Shown: positions 4,125 through 33,935 of the stretch, piece after piece
Numbering within the stretch: the first letter of the stretch is position 1
How the letters are laid out: each line of letters opens with the position of its first letter
Origin: Eledone cirrhosa
Taxonomy: Eukaryota
Assembly (NCBI GenBank): GCA_964016885.1
Contig: OZ024742.1
Span: 78,368,001-78,432,000 of the forward strand
Direction of reading: 5' to 3'
Length of the DNA stretch: 64,000 nucleotides
The notes under the pieces: generated by a model
Database searches by the model: none
The model's input: the letters and a program-made list of their open reading frames with translations, nothing else
What the model was told of the DNA's origin: nothing
Made by a program: the position numbers and the translations under genes

Positions 4125-4271
4125 TATATATATATATTTCAAGGAGAAAAAAATTCGCCAATAGGGGGATGACCACCCAGGGTTCGCTCAGGTACCCCAC
4201 CAATTCGGAACGACCCGACGCTTCGAGAGCACCCTGGAAGGGCACCCCCTCTCCTCCTCAAATTTACCTAC

Positions 4272-7200
4272 CTACAGCCGCATGACCAGAGTAGGCACAC
4301 TCACACAGGCCATTCTCGCCACATTCACCCACCTTTCAGCAAATGTACTGGGGGTGCAGCACTTCTCTCTCCACCCTCAACTTCCTTTCCAAGTGAAACT
4401 TGAAAAAGTTGATGAGGGATTGGCCGAAGAGAAAAATGTCTGTCTTCAGTCCTGTCAACCTCGTCCACCATAAAACCTTTTTCGTTACTGCCACCAGACA
4501 GAGGAAAATTGTGCCCTTCCTGGCAAAAAGAAGGCGGCGGGTCGATCTTCACTATGGACTCGGCCGATAGCCGGATCCGTTCTACACGCGACAACAGCTG
4601 TTTAACATGACTCCACAAGTCAGTAATGCACGGACACTGGACGAGTGCGTGCAGAACGGTTTCGTCGCTCTGCGCGCATCTCGGGCAGGTCCGTCTGACA
4701 GCACTTCCGTGCCTGTAGAGTTTATCTCGAACCGACAGTGCCCCCCGGTAACACTGCCAAGCGAGGGATTTTTGGAAATTATCCATCGTCCCCGGTACAG
4801 ACTGGTTAGTTCGACTTCGTTGACTCTCAGAGCCTCTCCGAGTGCGTCGTCGCACTTGCCCGCCACTAATCCTCTATAGAACTCGAGAGTGGAAGTTCCA
4901 CTGACCGCATTGCCCGCCTGGTAGAGGGCAGTGAGTGCCTGGCAACATTCCAGATGCCAGTCACCCAGTCTCGGTCTCTTCTTGACCCAGGACTGCAGCT
5001 CAGTCAAAGAAACGAGCTGCGGAAAGGCCCGTCTGACAAACGGCGACCAGACGTATTCACCGTTTAGGCAGAATAGCTGGAGATGTCGCAGCCTCAGCGC
5101 GTGCCAGCGCATCATTAGCCGTGGCATGCCCAGCTCTCCACATAGAGGGTGCTGGCAGCAGTTGGACCGCCTCACCAGCGGAATCTGACCCCTCCACAAG
5201 AATTTGAAGAGGAGCCGCTCCAAGATGGCGAAGCGCGAACGGGAGCAAGGGACGACAGTCAGACGGTAGTAGATGACGGACGCGATGTACGCGTTCGCCA
5301 CTTCGGCCCGACCTTTCAGTGATAGCTTCATCCCAGCCCATTTCTGGGTGAGACTGGCTACCCTTCCCGTCACCTCGTCCCAATTCCTATCCACCTGGAG
5401 GTCTGGCCCGAACCAAACCCCTAGCAACTTTACCGGTCCGGCCGTCCAGCGCCTAACGACGCAGTTGGACGCCATGGACTTGCCTCTCCAGGTGCCGAGT
5501 TGCAACCCACCGACTTTTCCGAGTTAAGTTTTGCTCCCGTCAACCTTTCATATTCCTCCAATAAGTTGCCGACCACCTCGATTTCTGAGGTGTCAGACAT
5601 GATCACGGTGATGTCGTCCGCATAAGCCGACACAGCCTTTCCGCGTCCCGGTTCGAGCGGGATGCCCTGTAACAGCTCCAGCTTCCGCAGTAAAGGCTCG
5701 AGAGTCAATATGTACAGAAGGGAGGAGAGAGGGCACCCTTGACGGACCGATCGGGAGACCTGAAACGGTTCCGAGAGGTGGCCATTAATTTTGACAATCG
5801 AGCAGGTGCCGCTGCGCATTGCAGCGATCCAGCTTCTGAAGACGGGGCAGAAGCCAGCCGCCTTGAGGACAGCCTCCAGGTATCGATGGTCGACCCTATC
5901 GAATGCTTTCGATTGATCTAAATTAATCAGAGCCCCACCGAAGCCAGGTTTACACCCTACCCTCTCTATAATGTATCGACTTAGGTGGAGGTTGTCGTAT
6001 ATGGACCTGGTTGGGATTGCGCAAGTTTGCGCCTCCCCAAACAAATCCCCGACGACAAGCACCAACCTCTTCGCTAACACCCTGGCCAAAATCTTAAACT
6101 CTGTGTTGAGCAGAGTTATGGGCCTGAAATTGTCTAATGTGTCCTTCTTGTTCTCGTCTTTCCTTATCAGCGTCACTACGCCCCGGCTCGCAGAACTGGG
6201 AATACTCCCGTTTTGCTGTCAGTTGCAGTAGAGGGCTTCGAGGAGATTGGAGAACAAGTCTGGCATATTTACGTAAAGCTCGTAGGGCAGACCATCCAAA
6301 CCGGGTGACTTGCGCCTCATGCAGCCGACAAGGGCATCCTGAATCTCAGCTGAAGTGATTGGCCTTTCGCAGCGCCCAGCGTCAGCCGTCGAGAGTTGCG
6401 GCAAGCTATCGAGGTAGGGACTGACGTCCACCACCATCTCTGACTCGCCACTTCCCCTGAACAACCGAGCAAAATGTTGGCGAAAGGCCTCACATCCGCT
6501 TGGAAACGCTCAGCTCGTGTCCGTCTCGGTCCGTCAAAGACCGAATCGTGGTTTTATTACCACGCTGCGCCTCTGCCACGCGAGCCCATCGAACAGTTTT
6601 GGTTCCCTCGTTTCTCAGAGCACGCGCCTTAGCTCTGACAATGCAACCTTCATGTTTCGCATTGAAGAATTGGTCTAATGCCATTCTCGCCGCTTAGCAC
6701 GTCAGTTGCAATGCCACTACCAATAGCCTCGTTTAACTTATCTACTAACTCCCCCTCCTTTCTATTTTTCTCTAACGCTACTTCTTTGCTAAACTCTATC
6801 GACATTACTCTAATCTCTCTTTTGAGAGCCCCCCACCATCTATTGTTGACGACTCCCCCTGTCAACTTTTTCTTAACTAAATTGTTCACCTGGTCCCTGT
6901 AAGCCTTACGTGCCGGAAATAACATGTTTAGCTTCCAGTAACCAGGTCCTAACCTACGCGTCTTATCTAGGTCGACCATACAGATCACAAACTTGTGATC
7001 TGAATAGGCGACCGTTTCAAAACGTGGACAGCTTACACTATTTCTGTCTATTTTCCTAATGAATATCCTGTCTATATACGATCTAGATGACCCTATGCGG
7101 TTAGCCCAGGTCCACACTGGCGCATTAGGGAAATCTAGTCGGTATCTGTCAGACAGTTTGAACTGGCTGATCAGATTCTTGAGGCTTTTGCACCCCCCGC

Positions 7201-7675
7201 TCCTATCGAATACTCCCACACAGTCCCAGTGTTGCGTCTAAGATGCCGTTCCAGTCCCCCGCTAACAGTAAAGAGCGAGACGTGCCCAGAAAGGTTTTCA
7301 GGCGTCTAAAGAAGTCCGGCCGTCCTGCCCCAGTAGGAACATAGACGGCCACCAGTCTAAAGGCAGCACCTTCATTATTGTTCACATCCAGGACCACCAA
7401 CTTCCCGTCCGAGTCCCGGAAGATCGACCTTACCTCGAGATCCAGGCCTTTCCTAAACAGCACTGCCACCCCGCCTCCCATTCCCGGCCGGCTAACAGAT
7501 GCAAAGATCTGATAGTCGTCGAAAATGGGGGCTAGAGCTGCGTGTCGGAAATCCTGGTCTCGCTGACTGCAATTACATCCATTTCTATAGACCTGAGGTC
7601 GTTGAGCAGGTGACTCTGCTTCCAGGACTATCCCAGGCCTCGAACATTTAAACATCCTTCTCTTAATACGGCGAT
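4272..7675 (-). pseudogene. Tx1 ORF2 (APE endonuclease, reverse transcriptase, zf-RVT), frameshifted
   Basis: GCLNVRG, AGDWNG, SDHK, SPGLDGLPYE, NFRPITLLN, DQSKAFDRV, RQGCPLS, AYADD and CPRC..DETVLHALVQC spread over several ORF fragments. Confidence 0.92.
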
Positions 7676-7706
7676 GTGGCAGGTTAAAAAGAGAGAGAGG
7701 AAAGGT

Positions 7707-9670
7707 TTACTTACCTTCCAGGCTTTTGTGAAGGTCGGGTTGCTCGACCTCCATAGTTGGTGGGGTTTCTTTTGGGAACCCCTTTAAAAGTCTTGAAGTT
7801 GGTTTTACGTTCGGGATTCCCACGTCCCGAGGAAAGCTGTCTCGTATTTCTTTGTATAATTCGATCGACATTCGCACCAGAACCAAATCTTCCGGCACGC
7901 GAAATGTGCTCGATTTAAAAATTTCCCCCTCTTTTTGTATATTTTCACTTGGTGCTACGAGGGCCATCAGTTCCTTGTTGGCCCTCCTGACGAGCACAAA
8001 GTTTTGTATGTTTTGTTGGTGTGATTTTATTTGTTTGCGTGGTTGTGGTGGTTTGGGTGGTGTTGTTTCGGTTGTATCTGTGTTTGTTGTGAGTGTGGTG
8101 TCTGTGGTTTCAGATGTTTGTGTGTATATTTGTTCTTGCGTCTGTTTCGGTTGTGTGCGTTTGGGGGATTCTGGTGATGGTGATGCTGATGTTGATGTTG
8201 GTGTTATTGGAGATATGTTTGCGTGGGTGGTGTCTGCGTTTTTTATTGTAGGTGCTTTTGTGCTTTGTTGAGTTCTTTTTTTCTTTTTGTGTTTCCTTTT
8301 TTGTATTTTGGGGGATTTTGGATTTCCTTCATTTTCACTACTGTTGAGGGGTCCGTGTCTGTAAGTGTGTCTGTCTGTATGTATGTTTAAGGTTTTATTG
8401 GTCTGTGTATTTTTGGGGGGAGGGGAATTTGACAGCTTTCCTCGTTTCCCTCCTGGGTGGTCAATGTTGGTGGTGGTCTTTCTATTGGTGTTGTTGTTGG
8501 TGGTTTTGCCGGTGCAGGTGTTGGTTGTGGTCCTCGCCCCGGCGTCGGCAGCAGTGGCGCCTTTCGACCCCTTGCCTCTTTCAGCAGTTGAGGGCAGAAG
8601 GCTCGCAAATGGGTTTTTTCCCCACAAACAAAACACTTTTGCCTTCGGTCATCATGTGAATGACAGTCCCATTCTGAAGGCGGATGTGGTCTGGGATTGT
8701 CTTCACATTCTCGGGCCTGATCTGGAGAAGGATCTCCAGGTCAACCCCGGACCAGTCCTCTCTGGCCGTTCTGGTCACTTCTATAGGGACTGTATCCGTC
8801 CCCTCCACAATCACACATCCCAGAAGCCACCACATGTCAAGTCCTGGTGGGATTCTGGGAATGCGGAGACGGGCCGTTCTTTTTCCCATGTGGGAGGGGT
8901 ACATTATGACCTTGCTGGTTTTGCAAGGAGTCATAGCGTGTTTCATAGCGAGGGCTTCTGACTTGAACAACACCGAAATGGTGCCGTACTGTCTGCCCCT
9001 CTCTATGTACTGGGTGTCTTCTCTGATGCACCTCAGCGCGACTTCGACATCTTCTTGTGGGATTAACCCTGCCCTTTTGGTTTGTGCTGAGATGCATCTA
9101 TAATGCACCGTTTTGCGCTCCACTACCTCTATAGCTTCTACCGGGACAGTTAAGTTGGCCCAAGTTTGCTCTTTCTTGATGAGCTTCCATGCCTGGGCCA
9201 ACTTTTCATCTTTGTTTGAGAGGTCCATGTTGAAGCATGGCCTCTTCTTTGCTGCTGCCGCAGCGAAAGTGGTCTTGTTTTCGTTGGGGGTGTTGTTGAC
9301 GTTGTTCTTGTTGGTGTTGTTGTTAGCACTGTCGCTGTTATCATTGTTGTCTTTGTTGCCACCGTTGTTCTCGGTTCAGTTGGTATTGTTGCTGTTGGTG
9401 TTGTCGCTATTTGTTTTCATGTTAGTGGTGTTGTTATTGTTGTTGTATTTGTTATTTCTTTTTTTTGTTATCTGTATTTTCGTTGTCGCTGTTACTGTCA
9501 TTTTTTTCAAAATTAGAGTTCTTATTGGTATCATTGGTGTCTTTGTTTACCTTGTTTGTGGTGGTGTTTGTGTTATCAATGTGTGTTAATTTCGCTGTAG
9601 CGCTCCTCTCAACTTCTACGTCGTTGTCGCACGGCAGCCGACATATCGCTGGGGGGCGTGGCACAGCCAT
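7707..9670 (-). pseudogene. Tx1 ORF1 (gag-like, CCHC zinc knuckle), frameshifted
   Basis: ORFs 8581-9228 and 7707-8636; KCFVCGEKTHLRAFC near 8590-8635; homologous to ORF1 of copies B and C. Confidence 0.8.
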
Positions 9671-9902
9671 GTTTTTTTTTCTTCGTAAATTTTTTAGCAT
9701 GTAAAAAAAAAGTTCAAATATTGGGGCCAAAAGGCCCAAATATTATACTTTCCCCTTCACGGGGCAAAGTCTAAGGGATTATATTTAACAACAAATAATT
9801 TAAACAGGCAAATAAAGCGACTTACTGTGAGCGAGCAAAATACGTCCGCTTAGACCAATAATAATAATAAATATATTTAATAAATATATATATATATGTG
9901 TC

Positions 9903-9929
9903 GAAACGGCCGGAGCTCAGCCGTCAGGG
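9903..9929 (+). ncRNA. 3' half of a hammerhead ribozyme (truncated)
   Basis: GAAA-CGGC-cggagctca-GCCG-TC-AGGG gives stem III and a GUC site; no CUGANGA upstream. Confidence 0.4.
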
Positions 9930-10393
9930 TCCTGACTCTTTTCCTATATGTAACTCTATATATATATGTGTGTGTGTGTGTGCGTGTATAGGGAGAGATT
10001 GAGGGAGAGAGAGAGTGATTGAGGGAAAGAGAATAAGAATACTCTCTTTTTTTCCATTGCCATGAACCTTCTCACCGACATGGACGAATTTTATCTTCAA
10101 TTCTCAATAAAATATTACATAATCTACACATTTATGCTATTTTATTCCTATGTCAAGCTATTGCTAGTATTGCGTATGTATATGTCTGTGTGTATTTTTA
10201 TGCGTGTGTATCTGTATGTGTGTATATCTGTATATGTTTATATCTGTATATATGTGTATGTGTGCGTGCCTGATTGTTTATCTTCTATTCATCGTCTGTG
10301 CCTCTCTTTGTTCAGTATTCTTCTCTATGTATCTCTTCCTCTCTAGCTATTTCTCTTCTTTTCACTCAATTGCAAACTTTATGTTTCAATCAT

Positions 10394-10690
10394 CTACCCC
10401 GTCATGAAAATTAACATTCCTAACAGATGAAATATCGTGGAAATTGATGATTCTGTCAGATCTAGGATCATCAATATTGACAATTTTAACAGATCCAGGG
10501 TTAGCAAAATAACGATTCCTTTTGCTCCACGTTTATCAAAATTACGAATTCTGACAGGTTTACAATTTTGAAAAGTGAAATTTCCAATTGGTTTGAGACG
10601 ACCAAAATTAAATATTCTGGCAAAAACTAATAAAACTCTAAAACCCTGACCCACATTCATCAAATTTAACGAAATTGACAGCTTGGAAAC
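10394..10690 (-). pseudogene. Possible PLE RT N-terminal relic
   Basis: DKRGAKGIVIL...ILD resembles the ADKG..IVI motif. Confidence 0.3.
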
Positions 10691-11149
10691 TGAATGCTAT
10701 GAATCTTCCTGGGTCTCTTCTCCTTTTTTCTCTCTCGTAGTAGTATATTTCGTGAAGGATATTTTCGCTGCTAATTCAACCAGAGTGAATAATTGACCGC
10801 GTAGTGACTTCTGCGTGTGTTACTGTAACTAGATCCAACATACACAGTCTCTGCAGCTACATCATACAACCACTCCTGGAAATAACCAGATACCTTTACA
10901 ATGTTCTGTAACACTCTTAAAGAAGCTTCGTCTTCCTAGAAATAGATTCACATCTTCCTCAAATCGCACCCTCCGTCTTAAAAAGAACGGTTACTTTCAT
11001 TACTGTAGTGCTAGGTGTCCTGTTTCTGAATAAGACTGAATGGATAGGTATGGAACATGTTTGATGATAGGCATGCTCAATAAGAGTTGAGCCACGACAA
11101 CTACGGCAATGACAAGATCAAGCACTACAGGAATAACAATAAAATAGCA

Positions 11150-12330
11150 TAGAATTCGAAAATCAAAACAAACAGAAATTATGAGAAGTCTAAAACTTAA
11201 GATTATAGTAGAATGAATAACATTGCTCGCCGTGCTTTATATGTTTCGTGGACCAATGCCAACTTGTTCCACGGTATCTTTTTCAAACCTTCGGAAGTCG
11301 AACTGACCATACACAACCTACGACCTGTTTCACCATAGATCGTAATAATATTAATGATTGCTTCCTTTTACCATCTTCTCTACTTTTTTAACAATAACCT
11401 TATGTTTTGCCACTTAGTTAGAATCAAGATTTGCTAGATAAAGAACTGCCGTTCTCCGAGTGCTACTTTTTAATCCGAAGCTGTACCATAAGAAAACATT
11501 CACGCCTTGCTTATGTCTGGTTTTGTTCATAGGTTTGAGGTGCGACACCATAATAGCTTGTTATTAGATCTTATCTGCATGGATGTTCCTTTAGTTGAGT
11601 TATGGTATGTCTAATTGACAAAGTGAAAGTCACTTCCTTACTATTAAGCAACCTTGTTTCACTCCCACTGTAACAATGCAACTAAGCAGTGGTGGAGTTC
11701 ATTGGCCTCACACAAATCCTCGTTCTAGTGTGTAGGTAATCTTTCATGCGAGAGAAAATTTCCAAGGATCCAAAATTCTGAGTACTTCACAAATATACGT
11801 CCACGTGTTGAAAGCTTTTGAGGAGTTAATGAAGAACACATATGCTTGCTTGTTCTGCTTCAGCATTCCTCTGGGATCTCTTGGTGCTTTTCCCTCGTCC
11901 GAGCCCACATTGAGTTTCAGCTAAACCTCAATCGTGACCTCCTCATTCGTATTTTTTGTGTGTTTTTTTTACCATTCTAAGGAGTTCATCTTTTTCAGGG
12001 ATGCTATTGATTTATGTGGCATTTTCTTTCCATCCATGAGCTGCCTTAAATGTGTTATGAATGCATGATGCTATTCGTTTACTCTTAATATTTTTACCTG
12101 TTTGTTGTGTATCGTATATGCAAGGATCTTTCCACCCAGAACAAGTAAAGAAACCTTTCAATAGTTCTCGTATACTTGCTTATCCCCCTTATGGAATACA
12201 AGGGCGAATTTAGAATTGTTAATAAGTTCACCTCCTCCATGTTTCCATACTTGTGCAAGAAAGCTGTTAAATCCTTACACTTTCACATTTAAATTATCAG
12301 GTTTCAGCTACACATAAACTACACTTAGAG
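11150..12330 (-). pseudogene. Old non-LTR (RTE-like) RT relic
   Basis: FHKGDKQVYENY*KVSLLVLGGKIL (~12120-12200), YVFFINSSKAF (~11815-11845), KQG motif (~11505). Confidence 0.65.
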
Positions 12331-12560
12331 AATCTTTCATTAAAAATATCTATAGTAATATGCATGTATCTTTTACCATGAAACACTGATGATCTCACAA
12401 CCGAACTCAGCTGATAGGAACAGCATTTCAGAGGTCCATATACATCCCTCACTCCAGCATAGAATCTACACGTATCATTGAAATCAGTAGCAGTTTGCAG
12501 TTCAATAATTTGTTCTCCTTCAACAATTCATATTGCGCGTGTTCTTTTGCAGTTTTCACT

Positions 12561-12895
<335 letters not shown>

Positions 12896-12914
12896 CCTCT
12901 TCATATACAAATAC

Positions 12915-13010
12915 TTAACTTTGCCTTTCATCCTTACGGGGTCGATAAAATAAAGTACCAGTATTACACTGGGTAATTGCTGGCCTTGTGCCAAAAGTAG
13001 AAACAATTAT
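12915..13010 (+). mobile_element. Main SINE family, 5'-truncated
   Basis: TTAACTTTGCCTTTCATCCTTACGGGGTCGATAAAATAAAGTACCAGT...AGTAGAAACAATTAT. Confidence 0.85.
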
Positions 13011-13637
13011 ATATATATTAATTATGTATAAATACTCCTCCTAAAATGGGGAGGTGATTCACAGCCCGTATTGACTGCTATTTCTAATAGCATTTGAGGC
13101 CTGTCATTTTGTCCGTATGTACAAATATTTACCTGGATGGTAGATTTACGCATGCGTACAATATGATCACTTTATCTTTTTATTGCAGCATGCTGGTTCG
13201 ATGCGAGACGGACACAATTTCTCCCAACGAGTATTTGTATCTTCCTTATACCTTACAGATTCCCTCTGATGAAGAATTGCTTAGTTAATGATGGCCATAT
13301 CAATCTATTGGAATTGTCAGATTTATTCTTCAGTTTTCAAACTGCAGTCAAGGAATTTTTAGTCAGGCTTCCTATTTTTAGGTTGCTTGTCTGTGAATAT
13401 GTCCCTAGTGATAGATGCTTGTGAAGTATTTTTTTTTTTAGTGTACTTTACTAGGATGTGCCCTTCAGTGATTTTATACAAGGTGTTGTGTATATATTTT
13501 CTTCTATGGATGATATTTTTTTAGTGACCTCTTTTCATTGAGATGTTAAATATATTCGCGACAAATTGATTAAATATATATAATTATACACACACACATA
13601 CGCGCGCGCGTGTACACACACACACATACACACACAC

Positions 13638-13697
<60 letters not shown>

Positions 13698-13708
13698 AAC
13701 AAATATCT

Positions 13709-14020
13709 TGCTCACGACGAATCACCCGACCCGCGAATTGAACTCAGAACCTCCTGATTGCAAGTCCAATGCGCTAAGCCATACACCTTTAAGTTGCTCC
13801 AATTTACTCAGCTGGAGAAATGAGTTGCGACGTCACTGGTGTAAAGTTGTATCGGTCATTGCCTTTCCCTTGAACGACATTGGTGGCGTCGAGGGGGGAA
13901 ACTAGAATGCATGGGTAACTGTTGATCTTCCACAAACAACATTGCCCAGACTTGTGCATTGGAGGGTATCTTTCTAGGTCAAATACCGTGGTCATTTGTG
14001 ACCGAAGGTCTTTACCCACA
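13709..14020. mobile_element. SINE with inverted tRNA-like head (13709-13790, minus) and plus-strand body (13815-14020)
   Basis: Body matches 58480-58640; minus-strand A/B-box-like head. Confidence 0.55.
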
Positions 14021-14328
14021 TATATATATATACATACATATATATGTATATATAATATTTCTGTTATTGCATGTGTTATGCAATGTTTTGATGTATTTTC
14101 ATCCTATTGTATTTATAATACTTATTCTAATTGTAATTAAATATTTTCGTGGCTGGTTTGATGCATTCGATTAAAATACTGCCAAAATGCAACCAAATTT
14201 CCTTCAAAATACACATTACGGTCTTTTAAAAGGACTGACGCCGTTGGTTGATACAGGAACGATATAGCTGTAAAAAAACGATATAGATGTAAAAAAAAAA
14301 AAAAAGATCGGATGATAACAGCTGTAAG

Positions 14329-14359
<31 letters not shown>

Positions 14360-14363
14360 TATA

Positions 14364-14650
14364 TAAATGGAAAAAATGAAATTTCATTTCTCGCTCTTAG
14401 TACGGCTGATACTTACATATAAGTATGTATACGTACATACATATATGTATACAGACGTACAGTAGTATGTATATACATACATACATGCACACATATATAT
14501 ATGTACGTATGGGTTTACCGAACATTTATTATAATGTTCGGTTTGTTTGTAAACAAATAGCCCGAATTAAGCCGTACAGTGTTCGGCAACCATCGTTGCC
14601 CTTTTGTTCAACACTGACAAAGGAACGATGAACTAGTTTCTAGCTTATTC
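14364..14650. mobile_element. Repeat shared with 44592-44985, internally inverted, with a half hammerhead
   Basis: 14364-14412 matches 44592-44647 directly; 14420-14650 matches 44738-44985 as reverse complement. Confidence 0.75.
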
Positions 14651-14932
14651 AAACTTTCCAAACTGAACCTGACCCGATAAAGTCTGGTTTCTTGGGAATG
14701 TCAACATTTATAAAACAAATTTTGTATTTTATCTGTTGAGAGCGTACCAAAATGTTGGTACCCTTGAATTATATATAATAAAATAAATATGTTTTTATAA
14801 ATATAGTTTCCATTTATTAATATCATTGATATTATACTCCAGAAAACTTGTAGAGTGCTTCGAATCTGTTATGAATAAATTTGTTGAATAACCAACAAAT
14901 TAAATATCTCTTTGCTTATATATATATATATA

Positions 14933-16376
14933 ATTTAAGATGGTAGTATGGTCGAAACAATAGAAGAAAAGACATCCTTCATCAGCTGTAAGACCGAGAT
15001 CAAAATGTTTCGGAGCTTAATACAGGACATCTAAAAGCGATCAGTCGCGCGCCCAAGGCCTTTTATCAATCAAAAGACCAGGAGGGAAAGAAAAGAAAAA
15101 AAAGAAGAAAGGGGAAAAGTAGTTAGGAGAGAGGAAGAAAGAGAAAAACAGGTAAAGAGACCAAATGATGGAGGGACACAGGTCAATGGAACATGCAAAT
15201 GAGTAACCGAGGAAAAAATAGAATAGAATAAGTTATGGGGTACCGATTAGACACAAGTCTGGAAGTACGATAACAGGAGCCCAGTGTTACCGTGCCATGT
15301 CAATCGAGAGGGAGAGAGTGAAAGAGAGTGAGAGAGGGAGGGGGAGAGAGAGAAATGGAGCAACTGGAAGTGAGAGGGAGAAGGGAAAGGGAGATAATCC
15401 AAAAGAGTTTTACGACAGTTGTAAAACGTGTCGTAAACGATCGAAACCAGAGGAGTTTTACGACATGTGTGAAGCATGTCGTAAACGATCGAAAACGAGC
15501 AGATGGATAGAGAGAGAGGGAGATAGGGAGAACGAGAGAGAGGAAAAAGGGAAGAGAGAGAACGAAAGAGAGGAAAAATGGAAGAGAGAGAAAGGGAGAG
15601 TCGATATGAAAGCGTGATGGGACCACAGATCGAGCAAAACAAGTAGAGGGGTTACAGTGGTAACCACACAGCTCCTTTCGTTTCTTATAATGTTCTACTT
15701 ACCGCTGCGACACCCCTCTACCTGTTTTGCTCGATCTGTGGTCCCACCACGCTTTCATATCGACTCTCCTCTTCTCTCTCTTCCCTTTTTCCTCTCTCTC
15801 GTTCTCCCTATCTCTCTCTCTCTCTCTATCCATCTGCTCGTTTTCGATCGTTTACGACATGCTTCACACATGTCGTAAAACTCCTCTGGTTTCGATCGTT
15901 TACGACACGTTTTACAACTGTCGTAAAACTATTTTGGATTAACTCTCTTTCCCTTCTCCCCCCCCCCCCTCTTTCTCTCTCTCTCTCTGTTTCTCTCTCT
16001 CCCTCCATTCAATTGAGATGGCACGGTAACACTGGGCACCTCTTGTCGTACCTCCAGACTTGTGTCTAATCGGTACGCTATAACTTATTCTATTCTATTT
16101 TTTCCTCGGTTTCTCACTTGCATGTTCCATTGACCTGTGTCCCCCCACAATTTGGTCTGTTTACCTGTTTTTTCCTCTTTCTTCCTCTCTCCTCTCTACT
16201 TTTCCTCTTTTTTCTTTTCTTTCACTCCTGACCTTTTGATTGATAAAATGCCTTGGGCACGCCGCTGATCGCTTTTAGATGTCCTGTATTAAGCGCCGGA
16301 ACATCTTGATATCGGTTTTACAGCTGATGAAGGATGTCTTTTCTTCTCTTGTTTCGTCCATACTACCATCTTAAAC
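14933..16376. repeat. Long imperfect inverted repeat (arms ~14933-15663 and ~15699-16376), probable PLE-derived fold-back
   Basis: Arms align as reverse complements throughout; (TA)n on both flanks; CTGATGAAGG near both outer ends. Confidence 0.9.
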
Positions 16377-16422
<46 letters not shown>

Positions 16423-16505
16423 GTGAGAGCGAGAGAGAGAGAGAGAGAGAGAAAGGGATATACATAGATAGATAAATGAATAGATAGGTAGAAAGATAGA
16501 TAGAT

Positions 16506-16821
16506 AAAGTTCTTTATTAGCCACAAGGGCACAAAAGAAGGGGACAAATACAAATGGAGAGTTTACATACAGGTATATGAAAATAAAACTATTAATAAAA
16601 TAACAAATAACAATTGAAATTCCCAATAGGGGGGGGGCGTTACACAGGGGTTGTACACACCCCGAAAAAATGTACAACCCTCATCTCCAGGAGCACCAAG
16701 AGTGAGTACTCCTTCCTCTCTTCCTCTTTTTCCTCAACCTACTGTCTTATATAGAGAGAAGGCCCAACCACTCGGGCCATCTTTGCCACATTCACCCACC
16801 TTTTATAAAATTTGCTGTGGT
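16506..16821 (-). mobile_element. 5'-truncated Tx1 copy E (end of ORF2 plus 3' UTR, copy-B type)
   Basis: Near-identical to the reverse complement of 28016-28332; flanked by (AGAT)n on both sides. Confidence 0.92.
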
Positions 16822-16896
<75 letters not shown>

Positions 16897-17103: not shown

Positions 17104-17168
<65 letters not shown>

Positions 17169-20971: not shown

Positions 20972-21002
<31 letters not shown>

Positions 21003-22768: not shown

Positions 22769-24722
22769 ATGGCCAAATTCTTTGACCTCATCTTCACAAA
22801 AAACACATCAGAGAATTGTGGAGATGGGCTGTTAATCTCACCTTCCACAGTACTAGTAGCAGGTGAAGGCTGTCTGCCTGCTGCTATCACCAACAACAAC
22901 AACAGTAACAACAACAGCAACAAAAACAACAACAACATCAAAACTGTCAGCCAACAATTAGACAGAGGTGGTGGAGGGACGGTAAAAGTGGCAAGCCAAC
23001 AAGCAGCTCGAACCGCCTCATTGAAACACTTCGATATGTTTAAAACACACCCTGACAACAACACCAGCACCACCAACACGAAAACTGTGAATGGCACAAA
23101 CTAAAACAACGCCATCAACAACAACAGTGACAACGAGAACAAGAAGAACAACAATGACAACAAAACCACAACCAACAACAACACCAACAACGGAAAAAAC
23201 GAAAACAACATCAACAATAAGAACAATAATAACAACAAGACCAATAACTGCAACAAGGAAGTAAACGACAAAATATAATTTGCTCAAACCGTAAAGAAAA
23301 CGGTAAGCTACACTCCAGTAGATATTTTAAATGCAAATGAGCTTTTGAATAACGCCAGACAATATGTAACTTTTGGGGAAAACGGATCATTCTCCATAAA
23401 CTCTCCCCCATATTTGCGAAGACAAGCTGCCTTGAAAACTGTGATTTTCAGGACAATCTCAAACAAAACACGAAAACCGACTCAACTTTCACAAGGCGAA
23501 ATTGAGTTGGCTTTAAAAAATGCCTTAAAAGACATTGCTTTTATTCAGAAGGGTAGACTCTACGGGAGTTTATCCATTCTAATGAAAGACCAATTGACGG
23601 CACAGAAATATTCTGTGTCGCCAATTGTGTCACCGCTGTTCACCTTTTTCCCCACTTACATGGGGAAAAGGACACAGAAAATAAAAATCCAAAGTATCAC
23701 ACCAAATATTGACATTTGGTGGGTACTATGTGGATTTTTAAACCACGAAACACTATCGGTAGGTAAGTCCTCCGGCGACCTGTTCAGCGGAACTAGCCTG
23801 GAAATTCTGGTCCAAATGACACCAGAACGAATAGCTAGGATCCCGGAACGTGTGTTGCTGGATGGGCTTATATACATAAACATTTCAGTCGAGGGTAGAC
23901 GGCCCTCATGTTACAACTGCTCAAGCAGGGGGTCACCTGAGAGCATCCTGTCCTCGGCTAACTAGCCAAAAAAACACTACTGCCAACACCTGCAACACCA
24001 GCACAACAATCACCACCACAACAACAACATAAAAAAATAGTGACAACAAAACAAACGACAAACACAGTCCCACCCAACCTCACCTAAAACAACTCCAGAA
24101 ACACTCACACACATAACAGCTCCCCAAAATGTATCCCTCCCCAACAACACGGATGCGGCCTCATCATCGTCACCCAGTGACGATGAGGGAGAGCCTTTCC
24201 GACTAGTAAAATGAAAAAAGAAAAGACAACACAAACAAAAATGCAACAAACACACAAACACCAACACAAGCGACGAAAAGAGCACAAACGAAAACACCCC
24301 TCCTGAAAACAAAACACCTACTACAAAACGTAAACACACACAAGAACCACAGACAAAAAAAAACCCAACAAAAATGCTACACCTACATAAATACTAACAA
24401 TAAAACTTTAACAGACACCATATATAAAAGCCCTTCGGTGGAGACCGAAGGGAAAACTTTTACACACTCTTCGGAGAATCCTAATCTTAAAATGATTAGG
24501 ACCTCCATGGACACACATAAACAGTTAAAAGAAAAATTTCCTAACGACGTAGGTAACCCCTGCGTCAAACCCTACAATCGAGTCCTGTAAAAATGTTTCC
24601 CCACCCCACCAGACACCCCCTCCCCACCAAACATCTCTGTCCCTACCCCTCCAGAGGACACCCCCCCAACACCCCCATCGAGATTGCGCAGCCTGATCCC
24701 CAGGAGACGAAGAGGTGGGTGA
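22769..24722 (+). pseudogene. Tx1 ORF1 of copy B
   Basis: ORF 23345-23965 homologous to copies A and C; CYNCSSRGHLRASC knuckle across a frameshift. Confidence 0.78.
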
Positions 24723-24758
24723 TTTCTTTTCCTCTTCTTTTAACTTTACGGCACCAAC

Positions 24759-27700
24759 ATGGCCAATATAAGAGTTGGATGTGTGAATGTACGCGGGCTG
24801 GGGATGCCCTGGAAACAGGTCAAACTCTTAAACGACCTCAGGTCGCACAGTATGGATGTAGTAGCCATTTGCGAGTCCAGGATCCACAGCGAGCAACAAC
24901 TGGCCCCCATATTCCACGACTTTGAGATCTACGCATCTCTCTGTCAGCCGGGAGGTGGGTGGGGGTGGGGTTGCCGTTTTGCTGCGGAAACACCTGGACC
25001 TCGTAACACAGAGGATACATCTGGACCCGGAGGGTCGACTGGTGGTCCTAGACGTTGACGGTAGTGAAGGTGGAGCCTCCAGGCTGGTGGCCGCATATGC
25101 CCCATCCGGGACACCGCGGCCAGACTTCTTCAAACGTCTAGAGACTTTTCTGGGAACGTCCCGCTCCCTGCTGTTAGTGGGGGACTGGAATGGAATTCTA
25201 GATGCACGCTGGGACTATGTGGGAGCATGTCCCGATAGAGGGGGTGCAACAGCCTCAAACAGTGAATCGGCCGATTTGACCTGGCCGATAGATATCGACT
25301 AGATTTTCCGACTGAACCACTGTAGACGTGGACTAATCGTATCGGAACATCTAGATCGTATCTAGATAGGGTTCTAGTAAGAAAGAAGGATAGGGACATG
25401 TTAAGCTGTCCACAAATGTTCATGGTTGCCTATTCAGATCACAAATTAGTGACCTGCTTAGTCAACCTTGACAAAACACATAGACAGGGAGCCGGCTACT
25501 GGAAGCTGAACTTGTCGTTACCGACATGCAAAGCCTACAGTAGACTCGATAGGTTTTAGTAAAGAATTAGTGTTAGATAGAAATAAGAGCGAAAAGGACC
25601 TGGTAGATAAAGTAGAAGAGGCACTTCGGAGTGGAAACGTAGCCAGCGTGCTAGCAACGAGAACGGCTTGGACCAGCTCTTCGACGCAAAGCATGAAGGC
25701 TGCGTTGTCAGAAGCAAAATACGTGCTCTGGGAAACGTGGGGGCCAAAGCTGTTAGCTGGGCCCGAGTGACGGAGGCGAAAAGTGGCAACAAGTCCACGA
25801 TTCGGTATTTGAAGGACCAAGACGGACGCGTGATACGTGAGCCGAAGCAAATGTGCGCGGCCTTTCAGCGGCACTTTGCTCAACTGTTCCGGCAGGGCGG
25901 CGCGCCGGGAGGGGCTATGGATTACGGTTCATACCTCGACGGCCTACGGCGACTCTCGGACAGCGAGGCAAAGTTCTCCGAAAGGCCGCTGAGATAGGGA
26001 ACGCGCTGAGCCAATGCAGCAAACGCAAATCTCGAGGTCTCGACGGTCTACCCTACGAATTTTACGTAGCAATGCCGGACTTATTCTCCGGTGTCCTGGA
26101 AGCGGTCTACTGCAACTAGTAGCAGAACGTGAGAATTCCCACTTCTGTGACCAAGGGCGTAATCACGTTAGTCAGGAAGGAGGAGGAGAAAAAGGGGGAT
26201 AACATAGGCAACTTCCGGCCCATAACTCTGCTCAACACAGAGTTACAGATTTTGGCCAAGGTGTTGGCAAAGAGGCTGGCACTTGTCGTCGAAAACCTGG
26301 TGGGAGAATCGCAGACATGCGCAATCCTGACCAGGTCCATACACGACAACCTCCACTTCATGCGATACATCATAGAGAGGGTAGGGTGTAAACCCGGCTT
26401 CGGTGGGGCCCTGACAACTTGGATCAGTCTAAGGCTTTCGATAGGGTTGACCATCGTTACCTGAATGCAGTGCTCGAGGCGGCAGGCTTCGGACCCGTGT
26501 TCAGGGGCTGGATTGCTGCAATGCACAGCAGCATCATCTGCTCAAGGGTAAAGGTGAACGGGTACCTCTCGGAGCCGTTCCATATCACGCGATCCATCCG
26601 ACATGGAACCCTCTCTCCTCTCTTCTGTACGTACTGAGTCTCGAGCCACTACTGCGGAAGTTGGAGCTATTGCAGGCATCCCCCTGGAACTGGGACTGCG
26701 AAAAGCGGCGTCGGCCTACGCTGACGACGTGACAGTAATGGTGTCGAGCACCTCGCAAATTGGGGAAGTCGGCACCTTACTGGAGGAATACGAAAGGTTC
26801 ACAGGAGCGAAGCTGAACCGTGACAAATCCGTCGGTTTGCAACTCGGAACGTGGAGAGGCAAACCGATGCCTTCCGATGACGTCGTTGGACGCTGGACGG
26901 AAGGACCGGTAAAGCTGCTCGGGGTCTGGTTTGGTCCGGACCTCCAGGTGGAGAAGAACTGGAACGAAGTGACGGCCAAGGTGTTTGCGCTCACCCAGAA
27001 GTGGGCCGAGTGCAAACTATCCTTAAAAGATCGAGCGGAGGTGGCGAACACTTTTATAGCGTCCTTCATCTACTACCGCTTGACTGTCGTGCCTTGTCCA
27101 GCCAAAACGCTCACCAAAATGGAGCGCACTCTCTTCCAATTCCTTTGGAAGAAACGGGCTCCTTTGGTGAGAAGATCCATCTGTTGCCAACACCCTTCAA
27201 ACGGAGGGCTGGGGATGCCGTGGCTGACGATGCGCAAACACGCGCTCTGGCTGCGGCACCTCCATGTATTCCGCACCAGACAACCGGTGTGATCCCCGTT
27301 CGTGAAGCGAAGCTTCCCACGACACGTCTCGCTGACCGAGCTGCAGTCCTGGGTCAAGCAAAGACCGAGGAAAATGGGCGACTGGCACATCGAATGTGCT
27401 CAGGCGCTCACAGTCCTCTGGCAAAAGGACCCGGCGATCAGTGGAGACTCCAGTTCGCCATTCTATAGAGGGTTGGTCCGCAGCAAGTGCGACGACACAC
27501 TCGGAGAAACTCTAGGCGTAGAGGAGGAGGAACTGGCCAGTATGTTCGGTAGGACCTTCTGCCCGGGACCAATGGACAACTTCCAAAAGTCTCTGGCCTG
27601 GCAGTGCTACCGAGGAGCTCTACCAGTTCGAGACAAGCTCTACAAACACGGGCGTCCGGGTAGGGACCCTTCGAAAAAGATCTGTCCGAGATGCGTGCGC

Positions 27701-28099
27701 GACGAGGAAACCGTCGCACACGCATTTGTACACTGCCCGGGCATTACCGACCTGTGGGGCTATGTAGAACGACTATTGTCGCAAATGGGACCAATCCAGT
27801 TGACCACCGAGTCCATTGTTATGATCAAACCGCCACCCTCCTTCAAAAACGAGGGAGATGCGGTTTTCCTATGTGTTATGGTTATGGTGAAAGAGGTTAT
27901 ATGGTGGACGAGGTTAAAAGGGCTTAGGTCAGACACCTTTCTCTCCGGCGAGCAGCTGATTCGTTTTTTCAAAAATCATTTTGGAAGAAGAATCAGGATG
28001 GAGAGAGAGGTGCTATACCCCAGCAAATTTTATAAAAGGTGGGTGAATGTGGCAAAGATGGCCTGAGTGATTGGGCCTTCTCTCTATATAAGCCTGTAG
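24759..28099 (+). pseudogene. Tx1 ORF2 of copy B (APE, RT, zf)
   Basis: MANIRVGCVNVRG, VGDWNG, NFRPITLLN, DQSKAFDRV, AYADD, CPRC..EETVAHAFVHC; multiple frameshifts and stops. Confidence 0.92.
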
Positions 28100-28545
28100 G
28101 TTGAGGAAAAAGAGGAAGAGAGGAAGGGAGTACTCACTCTTGGTGCTCCTGGAGATGAGGGTTTTACATTTTTTCGGGGTGTGTACAACCCCTGTGTAAC
28201 GCCTCCCCCTATTGGGGATTTCAATTGTTATTTGTTATTGTATTAATAGTTTTATTTTTATATACCTGTATGTAAACTCCCCATTTGTATTTGTCCCCTT
28301 CTTTTGTGCCCTTGTGGCTAATAAAGAAATTTATCTATCTATCTATCTATCTCGCATAGTATAGACGCGTACAACATCGGCTCCTGCCTTTTTGAATTTT
28401 TACCTATTGACAGTAAATGTTTGATTCTTTATTGTGTTGTCTTCGTGTCTTTTGACCACCCGGCTAGGTCTGTAGATGGGTGGTCATCGTATTTTTACCC
28501 CTTTTGGGGGTAAAAACTACTCCTAAACATTTTTTGCTGACTCAC

Positions 28546-30342
28546 ATGTCTAAAATTGACCGCATGTCTGTAGCACGTGTGAACGAAAACGCCACGCTCA
28601 CTAAGGAAGAAGAGAGAAAGAAGCAAGCGGTACAAAGCACTTTGCTTTCCCGCGTCAAAGTTTTAAAAGACATTGTAAAAGGCGAGTAAATACGGGTGCA
28701 AACCCAATTAATTACAACGAAAACACTAACAATGACAAAACCAACACACGAAATGAGAAAGACAACAACAAAAATGAAAATAACTCAAACTACGACAAAC
28801 AGAACAACAAAAAACAGAACAGCTCAAACACCAACAACGTAAACAAAATATCCGTTACACAGACTGCTAAAAAATCAGTCACCTATGTGCTTGAGGATAT
28901 AACAAATGCTAAAGAAATGCTTGAAAAAGCAAAAAAATATGTATCTTTTGGCGAAAATGGATCTTTTTCCATCAATTCGCCCCCAGAACTAAAAAAAACA
29001 GACGGAATTACGAATTGTTGTATTCCGTACAATTGCCAACAAAACAAGAAAACCAGCACAATCATCTCAAGTTGAAATTCAGTTGGTCTTGAAAGAGGCT
29101 ATGAAAGATATAATTTTCATACAAAAGGATTAACTCTATGGGAGTTTATCCATATTGATGAAAGACGAATTGGCGGCGAAAAAATACTCTGTGTCGCCAA
29201 TTGGTTCCACGCATTACACCTTTTTTCCAACCTACATGGGTAAAAAAACTCAAAGAATTTGGATAAGCACGATCACCCCAGACATAGACTACTGGTGGTT
29301 ACTAACCGGTTTCCTCAACTTGGACGAGGACAACCTAATATCAATAGGGAATGCATCCGGCAACGCATTCAGTGGAACGAGCATTGAAGTTCTGACCCAA
29401 ATAAAGCCAGAACGTATCGCCCAAATCCCTGAACGTGTAATGCTGGATGACCGTACCCACCTCAACATTATTGTGGAGGGTAGGCGTCCCTCCTGTTACC
29501 TCTGTGGCGACAGAGGTCACCTGAGGGCTGCCTGTCCCCAGCTCACACCGAAAAAGCCATTGCTACCAACACCCCAACAACAACATCAAAAACAACCAAC
29601 AACAACAACAAAAATAACCATAACAACAACAACAACAACAACACCACAACAACAACAAACACGTGAAAAAACAACACAGAACACTGTCCCACCCAACCCC
29701 TCCCCACCCAAAACAAATAGAAAAACACCCACACCGCAAACACTACCAGAAAACATACCCCTGCCACCCAACAAGGAAGACGAGCCCCTTTCGTCGCAAG
29801 ACGAAAAAGATCCCTTCCAAATAGTAAAAAGAAAGAAGAGGAGGCGCACCACAGACACACTTATTAACATAAATCCTCCCCAAGAGAAAACAAACTATAT
29901 ACAAACCACCCCTACCCTTCACACAACACTAACTGTTCCGCAAAAAAAGACTTTACAATATACATACATGAACACAAACAACAAAGAACTAATGAACACA
30001 ATTTCGTCAAACTCTTCGGTCCAAACTGAAGATCCTAACTTTCTAACTGCTGTGGGACTACCTCATTTAAAAATGATTAAAGTCCCAATTAACTTATTCA
30101 AAACATTGAAAATAAATTCCACGGAGGACGTACCCCCCACCCCCTGCACCAAGCCAATCAACACGTCCTCCTAAAAAAGTTCCCCACCCCCTACCCAGAC
30201 ACCCACTCAACTAAAAAACACCCCAACCCCACAACACACTGATGCCCCTACACTTCTACAAACCACCACCCCACCAAACAACCCATCCTCCACCCTCATG
30301 GAAATTGAGCGGCCCACTCCCCTGACACAGAGAGGTAAGTGC
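28546..30342 (+). pseudogene. Tx1 ORF1 of copy C
   Basis: ORF 29155-30174 with CYLCGDRGHLRAAC knuckle; YVSFGENGSFSINSPP shared with copy B. Confidence 0.8.
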
Positions 30343-30362
30343 CTTTTCTCCTTACCACCAAC

Positions 30363-33300
30363 ATAGCTGTGTTGAAAGTAGGGTGTCTAAATGCGCGTGG
30401 CCTGGGCTCACCTTGGAAGCAAGCAATGCTTCCAAATGACCTCAGGTCACGATCTGTAAATGTGATGGTTATCTGCGAGTCCCGGATCAGCAGCGTGCGA
30501 CAGCTGGCCCCCACCTTTGATGACTTTGAGATGCACGCATCTCTCTGTCAGCCCGGAGTTGGGGGTGGGGTTGTCGTTCTGCTGCAAAAACATCTGGGTC
30601 TCGCGACACAGATAGTTCACTTGGACCCAGGGGGTCGACTGGTGGTGCTGGACCTTGGCAGTGGTGAAGGTGGAGCCTTTAGGCTGGTAGCCACATATGC
30701 CCCTTTTGGGACAGAGCGGCCCGACTTCTTCCAACGTCTGGAGTCTTTTCTAGGGACGTCCCGTTCTCTGCTTTTGGTGGGGGACTGGAATGGTATCCTG
30801 GATGCACGTTGGGACTATACAGGGGCATGTCCCAATAGAGAGGGGTTTAATAGCCTCAAGGAGTTACTCGGCCGATTTGACCTGGCTGATAGATTTCGAC
30901 TAGATTTTCCGACTGTGCCAACATGGTCTTGGACAAACCGCAGCAGTCAATCTAGATCGTACCTTGATAGGTTCTTAGTTAGAAAGGACAGGGACTTTTT
31001 AAGTTGTTCAGAAATGCGCATGGTTGGCTATTCAGACCACAAGTTGGTGACCTGCATGGTCAACATTGATAGAACGCATAGACAGGGTCCCGGTTACTGG
31101 AAGCTGAACATGTCCTTACCAGCAAGTAAAGCTTACAGGGACTGGATTAGTACGTTGGTTAAGGAGTGGTTGACTGGAGCGATCGTCAACAGCAGGTGGT
31201 GGGTATCTCTAAAGAGAGAGATTAGATTAGTCTCGATAGAATTTAGTAAGGTTTTAGCTGCGGATAGGAATAGGAAGGAAAGGGAGCTGACAGATAGAGT
31301 AGAAGAGGCAATTAGAAGCAGTGACGTGGCCAGAGTGCTAGCGTCGAGAACGGCTTTGAGCCAGTTTTTCGACGCGAAGCACGAAGGCTGCGTTGTCCGA
31401 AGTAAAATACGTGCTCTAGGAAACGAGGGGACCAAAGCTGTTAGCTGGGCCCACGTGACAGAAGCCAAGAGTGGAATTAAATCCACCATCCGGTCTTTGC
31501 GAGACCAGGATGGACGGGCGATCCTGGAACCTAAGCAGATGTGTGAGGCCTTTCAAAGGCACTTTGCCCGATTGTTCGGAAGCGGCGAGGAGCCAGTTGG
31601 GGAAGTGGACTTCGGTCCATACCTCGACGGCCTGCCGCGTCTTTCGTGCTGAGCCAATGCGGCAAACGCAAATCCACGGGTCTCGATGGTCTTCCATACG
31701 AACTATATCTAGCTATGCCGGACTTGTTCCCCGATCTCCTCGAGGCGGTCTACTGCAACTGGCAACAGAACGAGAGAATTCCCTGTTCTGTGACCAAGGG
31801 CGTAGTCACGCTAGTGAGGAAGAACGAGAACAAGGGGGAAGAAATAAGTAACTTCAGGCCCATAACTCTGCTAAATCCAGAGTTACAGATTTGGGCCAAG
31901 GTGTTAGCAAAGAGGTTGGCGCTGGTCGTGGGCAACCTGGTGGGAGATGCACAGACATGTGCTATCCCGTCCATGTCCATCCACGACAACCTCCACCTCA
32001 TGCGATACATCATAGAGAGGGTTGGGAATGAACCCAGCTTTGGTGGGGCCCTGATCAACTTGGATCAATCTAAGGCGTTTGATAGGGTCGACCATGGTTA
32101 CCTGGATGCGGTGCTAGCAGCGGCAGGCTTCGGGCCCGTTTTCAGGGGCTGGATCACTGCTATGCACAGCAGCCGCATCTGCTCTAGAGTCAATGTGAAC
32201 GGCTACCTCTCGGAGCCGTTCGAAATCGCGCGGTCCATCAGACAAGGGTGCCCTCTCTCCTCCCTTCTGTATGCATTGACTCTCGAGCCCCTACTGCGGA
32301 AGTTGGAGTTGTTGCAGGGCATCCCTTTGGAACCGGGATTGCGGAAAGCGGTGTCGGCCTACGCCGATGACGTGACAGTAATGGTGTCGACGGCCTCCGA
32401 AATCGGGGCGATCGGCACCTTACTGGAGGAGTACGAAAGGTTTACAGGGGCTAAACTGAACCGGGACAAGTCGATCGGTTTGCAACTCGCCACGTGGTGG
32501 GGAAAACCGATGCCCTCCGATGGCGTCGTCGGACGCTGGACGGAGGGCCCGGTGAAGTTGCAGGTAGAGGAGAACTGGAGTGAGGTTACGAACAGGGTGT
32601 TTGCACTGACCCAGAAGTGGGCCAGTTGCAAACTATCCCTGAAAGGTCGGGCGGAGGTAGCGAACGCCTATATAGCGTCCGTCATCTACTACCGCCTGAC
32701 CGTCGTGCCTTGCCCAAGGGAAACTCTCGCCAAGATGGAGCGCGCACTCTTCCAATTCCTTTGTAGGAAGCGGGCTCCTTTGGTGAGGAGATCCATCTGC
32801 TGTCAACACCCTTCGAAAGGAGGGCTGGGGATGCCGTGGCTAATGATGCGTAAACACGCATTAAGGCTACGGCACCTCCACGTATTCCTCACCGGTCAAC
32901 CGGTATGGGCCCCGTCTGTGAGACGTACCTTTCTCAGACTCGTCTCACTCACCGAGCTGCAATCCTGGGTCAAGCAAAGACCGAGAAAACTGGGCGCCTG
33001 GCACACTGAGTGTGCCTAGGCGCTCACGGCCTGCTGGCAGGAGGACCCGGGTATCAGTGGAGACTCCACCTCGACATTCTATAGAGGGCTGGTATGCAGC
33101 AGGTGCGACGACGCCCTCGGAGAAGCCCTAGACATGGAGGAAAACGAACTGGCCAGCCTGTTTGGTAGGACATTCAGCCCGGGACCTATGGACAACTTCC
33201 AGAAGTCCCTGGCCTGGTAGTGCTACCGAGGGGCTCTACCCGTTCGAGAAAAGCTCCACAGATCGGCTATGTCCGAGATGCGTGCGCGACGAGGAAACCG

Positions 33301-33674
33301 TTGCACACTGCTCGGGCATAGCCGATCTGTGGGGCTATGTCGAACGACTGCTGTCACGGGTGGGACCGATCCGGTTGACCACCGAGGCCATTGTAACGAT
33401 TAAGCCGCCTCCCCACTTCAAAAATGAAGGAACGGCGGTGTTTCTGTGCGTAATAGCCATGGTGAAAGAGGTTGTATGGTGGACGCGTCTGAAAAGACTG
33501 AGGTCAGGCACCTTTCTCTCTGGCCAACAACTGATCCGTTTCTTCCGATATCATTTCGGAAGAAGGATCAGGATGGAGAAAGAGGTGTTCCACCCCAGTC
33601 GTTTTTATGAAAGGTGGGTGAAAGTGGCGAGAATGGCCCGTGTGAATGGGCCTTCTCTCTACATCAGACTGTAG
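30363..33674 (+). pseudogene. Tx1 ORF2 of copy C (APE, RT, zf)
   Basis: ORFs 30339-31652 (APE), 31646-33019 (RT: RQGCPLS, AYADD) and 33162-33674. Confidence 0.93.
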
Positions 33675-33935
33675 GTGGAAAAGATGAAGGAACGAGGGAG
33701 CACCCTCTATGCTCCTGAGGAGAAGGGTTGCACACTTTTTTCGGGGGTGTATGCGACCCCCCAAAATGCCTCCTCCCTATTGAGGACTTTATTGTTAATT
33801 TTATATTTGTTATTTGTTTTATATTTGTTATTTATTTTCTTTACTCGCCTTTTTGTGTTAACTCTCCCCCTTGTATTTGTCCCCTTCTTTTGCGCCCTCA
33901 TGGCAATAAATAGAAATATATCTATCTATCTATCT

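Follow-up and report, generated by a model that had tools for sequence, protein, structure and literature searches.

In the RNA phage MS2, a long-distance pairing hides the replicase start until the coat gene has been translated, and the 2-kb RNA of the Drosophila copia element is a Gag-only spliced RNA. Gag-only spliced subgenomic RNAs are also described, in the passages drawn on here, for the Ty1/copia elements EVD of Arabidopsis (PMC5580714) and BARE of barley (PMC3735527). Among long interspersed nuclear elements (LINEs), splicing of human LINE-1 RNA within the 5' untranslated region (5'UTR) or from the 5'UTR into open reading frame 1 (ORF1) gives rise to SpIREs, which the relevant sections of their description present as evolutionary dead ends and count as 131 of 6,609 (~2%) full-length L1PA1-6 copies (Larson et al., 2018; PMC5860796). 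The antisense introns of TART are another case of LINE RNA splicing, as far as the cited excerpt goes (PMC1636488), and in the SART1 LINE the translation of ORF1 and ORF2 is coupled (Kojima et al., 2005, as described in a passage of PMC3894237). How the ORF2 protein (ORF2p) is kept scarce relative to the ORF1 protein (ORF1p), and how ORF2 is translated from a bicistronic RNA, are open questions for most LINE groups. Here we analyze three long LINE copies, named A, B and C, in a stretch of 64,000 nucleotides (nt) from Eledone cirrhosa (GCA_964016885.1, OZ024742.1:78,368,001-78,432,000). This stretch is hereafter called the window and all coordinates refer to it; in each of the three copies, ORF2 is flanked by sequences that resemble splice sites.

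An earlier note on the window had taken these flanks to mean that ORF2 is a retained intron, the removal of which would leave an ORF1-only RNA. Although the splice-like brackets of ORF2 do exist and are conserved, they fall within arms of ~100 nt that are predicted to pair with each other across the 3.4 kb of ORF2; on this modeling we see about an even chance that the duplex is the main explanation for the brackets.

Copy A occupies positions 4125..9878 of the minus strand, with an approximate 5' limit and a 3'UTR cut at ~4125 by (TA)n and another repeat. Copies B (23150..28354, 5' limit likewise approximate) and C (28355..33937) lie on the plus strand and end in AATAAA and (ATCT)n at ~28332-28353 and ~33918-33935, respectively, with C beginning right behind the (ATCT)n tail of B. 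Copy C is ~77% identical to copy B and ~69% identical to copy A. All have the layout of L1/Tx1-type LINEs, namely a separate ORF1 followed, ~40 nt further on, by an ORF2 with an N-terminal apurinic/apyrimidinic endonuclease (APE) and a reverse transcriptase (RT); ORF2 of copy C matches Pfam Exo_endo_phos (2.6e-08) and RVT_1 (2.3e-23), a zf-CCHC match in ORF1 stays below the cut-off, and an ESM Atlas look-up returned generic endonuclease clusters and nothing more specific. Judged by ORF layout and domains, these are L1/Tx1-type elements and candidate members of the Tx1 group. In the genome searched (3.0 Gb, 1796 contigs), families A, B and C have more than 1000 candidate copies each; family A is the youngest, and the neighbors of copy A are 96-97% alike over the ORF1 end. 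For each family, 30 of the 40 places listed for its ORF1-end query were retrieved, giving 29 non-self loci. Four extra lineages, A2 (locus L154), D (L151 and L152), E (L153) and F (L155), were retrieved as well, F being the one more lineage that tblastn found in the flanks of the loci. This brings the total to seven lineages, which are mutually 65-80% alike.

For the pairing analysis, arm X was defined as the segment from -20 to +90 of the donor-like site at the end of ORF1, and arm Y as the segment from -70 to +80 of the ORF2 stop. In copy A (minus strand), arm X (7627..7736) holds the ORF1 end, the inter-ORF pyrimidine tract and the ORF2 start, with the start codon mutated to ATC (7673-7675), and arm Y (4198..4347) holds the last ORF2 codons, the stop TAG (4272-4274) and the purine-rich start of the 3'UTR. 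In copy B (plus strand), arm X (24693..24802) carries the ORF2 ATG (24759-24761) and an acceptor-like TTTTAAC..TTTACGG, which reads TTTTCAG in 24 of 30 family copies; arm Y (28024..28173) carries the ORF2 end, the stop TAG (28097-28099), the purine tract and an ACTCAC that is predicted to pair with the GTGAGT of the family. Arm X of copy C (30313..30422, plus) has an ORF2 start mutated to ATA (30363-30365), and its arm Y (33599..33748, plus) comprises the ORF2 end with CCTTCTCTCT, a competing CAG (33665-33667), the stop TAG (33672-33674) and the purine tract.

The two arms are complementary beyond background and show compensatory changes between lineages, across only eight related sequences. 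Predicted arm X/arm Y duplexes are near-continuous, with energies of -81 to -96 kcal/mol in six elements, against a background of about -45 to -55 kcal/mol for any two windows of arm size, and among ~90-105 windows of 150 nt arm Y is the top partner of arm X in each of five elements examined in this way (z -2.1 to -3.9). A consensus duplex of 43 pairs was obtained from the eight sequences of the seven lineages; standard pairs fill 90.7% of its cells, a share that falls to 42-56% once the partner is slid along by 1-3 columns. Changes on both sides are found at 15 of the 43 pairs, as opposed to 2-9 in the slid alignments and 7.9 +/- 2.0 in shuffled ones, and none of 500 column shuffles reaches 15. 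The arms also prefer their own partners: the summed energy of own pairs is -616.5, compared with -528.9 +/- 18.3 over 1854 derangements, none of which reaches the own-pair sum, and the own partner ranks first in four of the seven lineages, second in two and fourth in one. When the arms are cofolded with intra-arm competition, 47-73 inter-arm pairs form in all eight sequences, and the sense strand yields 43 consensus pairs as opposed to 19 for the antisense strand. A local hairpin around the ORF1 stop was also considered and was rejected, given that no consensus structure was found there (z -2.1 to +1.1).

The predicted helices join the landmarks of the two ends of ORF2. The ORF2 start and its context (ACCAACAUGG) would pair with the ORF2 stop (CUGUAGGU), the early ORF2 codons (AGAGUAGG) with CCU(U/A)CUCU, which is the apparent polypyrimidine tract, a GGCC with another GGCC, and the inter-ORF pyrimidine tract with the purine-rich start of the 3'UTR. 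Within the donor motif, GG and GU(R) are predicted to pair with a segment of the 3'UTR, leaving the TRA stop unpaired. Co-variation reaches both splice-like sites: the T that follows TAG|G pairs with A in six sequences, forms a G-U pair in A and a G-C pair in A2, while position +3 of the donor, A in F and G in family B, stands opposite a U or C of the 3'UTR (GCACUU in F, ACUCAC in B).

At the upstream boundary, the donor-like letters are present where the earlier note had placed them: AAG|GTAAGT in A (G at 7714, minus), GAG|GTGGGT in B (24715) and GAG|GTAAGT in C (30335). The motif is AGGTAAGT in copy A (7709..7716, minus), where ORF1 reads GAA GGT AAG TAA and stops at a second TAA (7707..7709, minus), 4 nt past the internal TAA of the motif; the same AGGTAAGT stands in copy C (30333..30340, plus), in which the family-frame ORF1 stop TAA lies at 30336-30338 and a 1-nt deletion just upstream is specific to the window copy. 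Copy B has AGGTGGGT (24713..24720, plus) in place of the family form AGGTGAGT, with the ORF1 stop TGA changed to TGG at 24716-24718; nearly all contigs compared with it have 24718 G>A, the TGA stop of the family. Within families, the exact motif is found in 24 of 30 copies of A and 23 of 30 of C (AGGTAAGT) and in 27 of 30 of B (AGGTGAGT). The earlier note had asked whether GT and AG are conserved across the wider family, and AGGTRAGT is indeed kept in all seven lineages, as is the AG at the other end; lineage E, represented by a copy with a 16-nt deletion and ambiguous as to its ORF1 stop, retains GAGAGGTAAGT. A 5' splice-site consensus, which we take to be the exact complement of the U1 5' end, is present at this boundary in the seven lineages and forms an invariant island within an otherwise poorly conserved ORF1 tail. 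At the family level ORF1 ends in ..GAA GGT AAG TAA in A, ..GGA GGT AAG TAA in A2, ..AAG AGG TGA GT in B, ..GAG AGG TAA GT in C and D and ..AAA AGG TAA GT in F; the stop of B, C, D and F is thus the TRA within the motif (AGG TRA GT), and in A and A2 the frame is offset by 2 nt and the TAA of the motif is out of frame. By crude position weights suited only to ranking, the donor-like site is first among the GTs of the element in A (1/285), C (1/268) and A2 (1/273), second in D (2/269) and tied for places 4-5 of 263 in the mutated window copy B. The donor-like site exceeds chance.

In family B, TTTTAAC..TTTTCAG directly precedes the ORF2 ATG in 24 of 30 copies and forms with the donor a 37-nt GT..AG unit (24715-24751 in the window; L032-L060). 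As a "mini-intron" this unit was rejected: its AG is missing in A and C, and 37 nt is below the usual minimal intron sizes.

The downstream boundary is of a different quality. ORF2 ends with CTGTAG|G at 4272 (A), 28099 (B) and 33674 (C), followed by purine-rich sequence and, in B and C, preceded by CCTTCTCTCT, all as described before; the AG forms the end of the ORF2 stop TAG, which stands within ..CTG TAG GT in A-F and CTA TAG GC in A2. On the same crude scale, it ranks 16/261, 17/251, 24/252 and 11/254 among the AGs of the elements, and as an acceptor it is ordinary to mediocre. The weak pyrimidine tract reported for copy A is borne out by the family (10 of 17 pyrimidines), and in C and D a CAG 8 nt upstream outscores the stop AG. 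The acceptor-side features, that is the pyrimidine run, CTGTAGGT and the purine-rich start of the 3'UTR, all fall within one arm of the ~100-nt long-range complementarity, and, given the helices between the arms, each of them supplies one side of a co-varying helix. On the acceptor side, the argument for an intron is largely accounted for by two other constraints, the ORF2 stop codon and co-varying pairing with the ORF2 start region. A second donor-like sequence, AAG|GTGGGT, is shared by all lineages ~55 nt upstream of the ORF2 stop, where it falls in ..RWV.. codons (28041-28049, 33613-33621 and 4324-4332) and is probably kept by coding together with arm Y pairing.

What such a duplex might do is suggested by analogy. 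A likely use, though one we hold with less than even confidence, is that the pairing gates ORF2 translation rather than marks an intron. A long-range RNA zipper would close ORF2 into a loop and hide its start; ribosomes finishing ORF1 would pull arm X out of the duplex and thereby make the ORF2 start accessible, as SART1 and phage MS2 lead us to propose, and the outcome would be that ORF2p is kept scarce and its synthesis is coupled to the translation of ORF1. As in MS2, a downstream start would be hidden by a distant segment and, by prediction, opened by ribosomes on the upstream gene, whereas in that bacterial system the pairing partner does not lie downstream of the regulated ORF, as it does here. 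As in SART1, in the part of PMC3894237 that describes it, ORF2 initiation would be tied to ORF1 termination and to RNA structure near the junction; in contrast to the overlapping UAAUG and local downstream structure of SART1, the Eledone ORFs are ~40 nt apart and the predicted duplex runs from start to stop over 3.4 kb.

Several points weigh against the duplex as the main explanation. The GG..GU of the donor never changes while the letters of its partner vary (G faces C or U, and U faces G or A), part of the donor motif falls in an internal loop in C and D, and the motif is kept in A and A2 though its TAA is out of frame there. Because the motif is invariant and its partner variable, the stop codon and the pairing together fall short of fully explaining the perfect match to a 5' splice site, and the donor motif may have a sequence-specific role, such as U1 binding. 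Relative to shuffled partners, cofolding brings a strong net gain in B, A2, F and E but a marginal one in A, C and D. The pairs of the consensus structure were counted in the very eight sequences that had yielded it, and the duplex is largely a pyrimidine tract against a purine tract, of low complexity and uncertain alignment. Per-sequence energies do not tell sense from antisense, so that the strand assignment favors sense only weakly. The translational role, finally, is one that we purely infer, and a zipper across an intron could equally aid splicing.

That last point leads to the intron itself. On this reading, ORF2 would be a facultative spliceosomal intron bounded upstream by the GT where ORF1 ends and downstream by the AG within the ORF2 stop, with the co-evolving zipper of 100 nt bringing the invariant 5' splice site next to the ORF2 stop; a switch between full-length RNA and an ORF1-only mRNA on the native 3'UTR would then set the ratio of ORF1p to ORF2p. 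Judged from the sequences, we regard this as unlikely, at something like one chance in six. It would explain why a perfect or near-perfect 5' splice-site consensus, ranking top in three of five elements and second in D, is invariant across seven lineages despite a switch between TAA and TGA and the 2-nt frame change of A and A2, why the motif varies less than the sequence it pairs with, and why complementary arms flank the supposed intron. Set against this are an acceptor that ranks 11-24 among ~250 AGs, lacks a pyrimidine tract in family A and is outdone by the upstream CAG in C and D, the alternative explanation of each acceptor-side feature by a stop codon or a co-varying pair, and the predicted position of both sites within helices.

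The reading frame across the supposed join gives mixed testimony. The phase-1 join of the earlier note holds for A and A2 (GGT AAG TAA), but the family frame of B, C, D and F gives phase 2; the error arose because window copy B has TGA>TGG and window copy C a 1-nt deletion. The accompanying claim that essentially the same ORF1 protein would result is correct for four of the eight sequences (A, A2, window copy C and E), in which the join yields an immediate or near-immediate stop, and fails for B, both D copies and F, in which the predicted product would read on for at least 25 codons. We lean against a functional ORF2 intron because the acceptor half is otherwise explained and this regenerated stop is not conserved.

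Copies of a spliced RNA were sought in the genome as well. The ORF1-end queries stopped at the donor and hence were blind to the sequence downstream; the precisely ORF2-deleted copies that the earlier note envisaged number 0 among the 87 non-self copies that hold the ORF1 end, none of which joins the ORF1 end at the donor to the 3'UTR or to anything else. All 87 continue into ORF2, the few internal deletions among them beginning 17 to 78 nt past the donor. With 3'UTR-only queries, an ORF1 end upstream without ORF2 was found in 0 of 58 copies. Exact genome-wide matching of junction patterns, each consisting of the ORF1-end motif, 0-8 free letters and the 3'UTR-start motif, found no spliced match in any of the three groups A, B and C/D, whereas unspliced patterns of the same length matched 155 (A), 209 (B) and 1175 (C/D) times. 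Internal deletions in L126, L025, L036 and L053 neither begin at the donor nor end at the proposed acceptor; in L126, a C-type copy retrieved with the 3'UTR-only queries, the unrelated gap spans 30000 to 32850 and takes away part of each ORF. Contigs from eight runs, all either DNA or of unknown kind, were also compared with the window, and the joints listed for them include none from donor to acceptor: the 15 of 3198 listed for runs X1-X4 on B and C are B-to-C cross-mappings, and the 15 of 27 listed for runs X6, X8, X9 and X10, which are of unknown kind, contain none. The absence of spliced copies weighs against the intron and is not decisive, since an ORF2-less RNA would need to be copied in trans.

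Compared with human LINE-1, as far as the SpIRE passages of PMC5860796 describe it, the Eledone elements likewise have an RNA with functional-looking splice sites and a genome that can be searched for copies of spliced RNA; they differ in that the intron, if there is one, would take in all of ORF2 and in that the search for spliced copies gave 0 against the 155, 209 and 1175 unspliced matches. The ORF2-intron model would parallel EVD and BARE, in which, by the excerpts of PMC5580714 and PMC3735527, the polymerase part is spliced out in favor of more RNA-binding structural protein, but EVD and BARE are long terminal repeat (LTR) elements whose splicing is demonstrated by RNA data, whereas the Eledone LINEs have a weak putative acceptor. 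Were ORF2 nonetheless a regulated intron, it would be the first LINE counterpart of copia-type Gag-only splicing; if the brackets are merely stop codons and pairing, then splice-like brackets around LINE ORFs require RNA proof.

The donor motif might instead be a binding site of the U1 small nuclear ribonucleoprotein (snRNP) without productive splicing, acting on nuclear retention, stability or 3'-end processing, with its 3'UTR partner masking or unmasking it. This would fit a motif conserved beyond the needs of pairing and the 3'UTR partners ACUCAC (family B) and GCACUU (F), which would compete with U1; on the sequences at hand we think it decidedly unlikely. Counted on the sense strand, the G-rich ORF2 of A, B and C contains 0-1 AAUAAA/AUUAAA hexamers, and with so few poly(A) hexamers there is no evident need for shielding from premature polyadenylation, so that protection of this kind was rejected.

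Coincidence and descent, in which two stop codons (TRA and TAG) with inherited neighbors mimic splice sites while motif and pairing alike are without function, would draw on the facts that the ORF1 stop of B, C, D and F is spelled by the T, R and A of the motif, that the AG belongs to the ORF2 stop and that the match came from a reader seeking anything notable, but it is improbable, given that the motif is an invariant island kept in A and A2 despite an out-of-frame TAA and that the arms co-vary and prefer their own partners.

For the start-to-stop duplex, to return to the preferred explanation, searches of the open-access literature turned up no paper that describes such a structure enclosing ORF2 of a LINE, nor one on a U1-type motif where ORF1 stops, and the text of an O. 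vulgaris repeat paper contains neither "splic" nor "ORF1" (PMC13282606). The predicted duplex would offer a directly testable model for translational or splicing control in a young and abundant family.

The tails of the elements show a further regularity. At the 3' ends of the elements, AATAAA runs into (ATCT)n (28332-28354 and 33918-33937 in the window), and the window holds a head-to-tail run in which the tail of B passes at once into C and the tail of C is followed by a 5'-truncated copy (33963-34098); L143, L146 and L122 sit in or form (ATCT)n arrays. At other loci, truncated copies lie right behind long (TATC)n runs, and 3' ends occur in tandem. Tails and head-to-tail order fit insertion into (ATCT)n or into the tail of an earlier copy, as far as such an arrangement can indicate. 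Microsatellite-inserting LINEs of the Tx1 group include, in the portion of PMC4494074 drawn on here, Kibi in (TC)n, Koshi in (TTC)n and crocodilian Tx1 elements in (TTCC)n/(TTTC)n. The Eledone elements resemble these (PMC4494074, same portion) in their two ORFs, the APE and RT of ORF2, the microsatellite tail and the head-to-tail arrays within the repeat, and differ from Kibi, Koshi and the crocodilian Tx1 elements in that their repeat is (ATCT)n.

Some smaller features of the copies may be recorded. The window copies carry small internal deletions: they lack ~54 nt at 31646 (C) and ~85 nt at 25545 (B) that most copies of their families retain. The 3'UTR of copy A is shorter than 12 of the 13 A-family 3' ends compared, the thirteenth (L091) being the window copy itself. 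The repeat beside copy A (~3990-4125, minus, after (TA)n) looks tRNA-like by eye, an identity that was rejected when ARAGORN found no tRNA in it. A lone B/C-like 3'-end fragment lies at 16490-16810 on the minus strand and is 74% alike to C.

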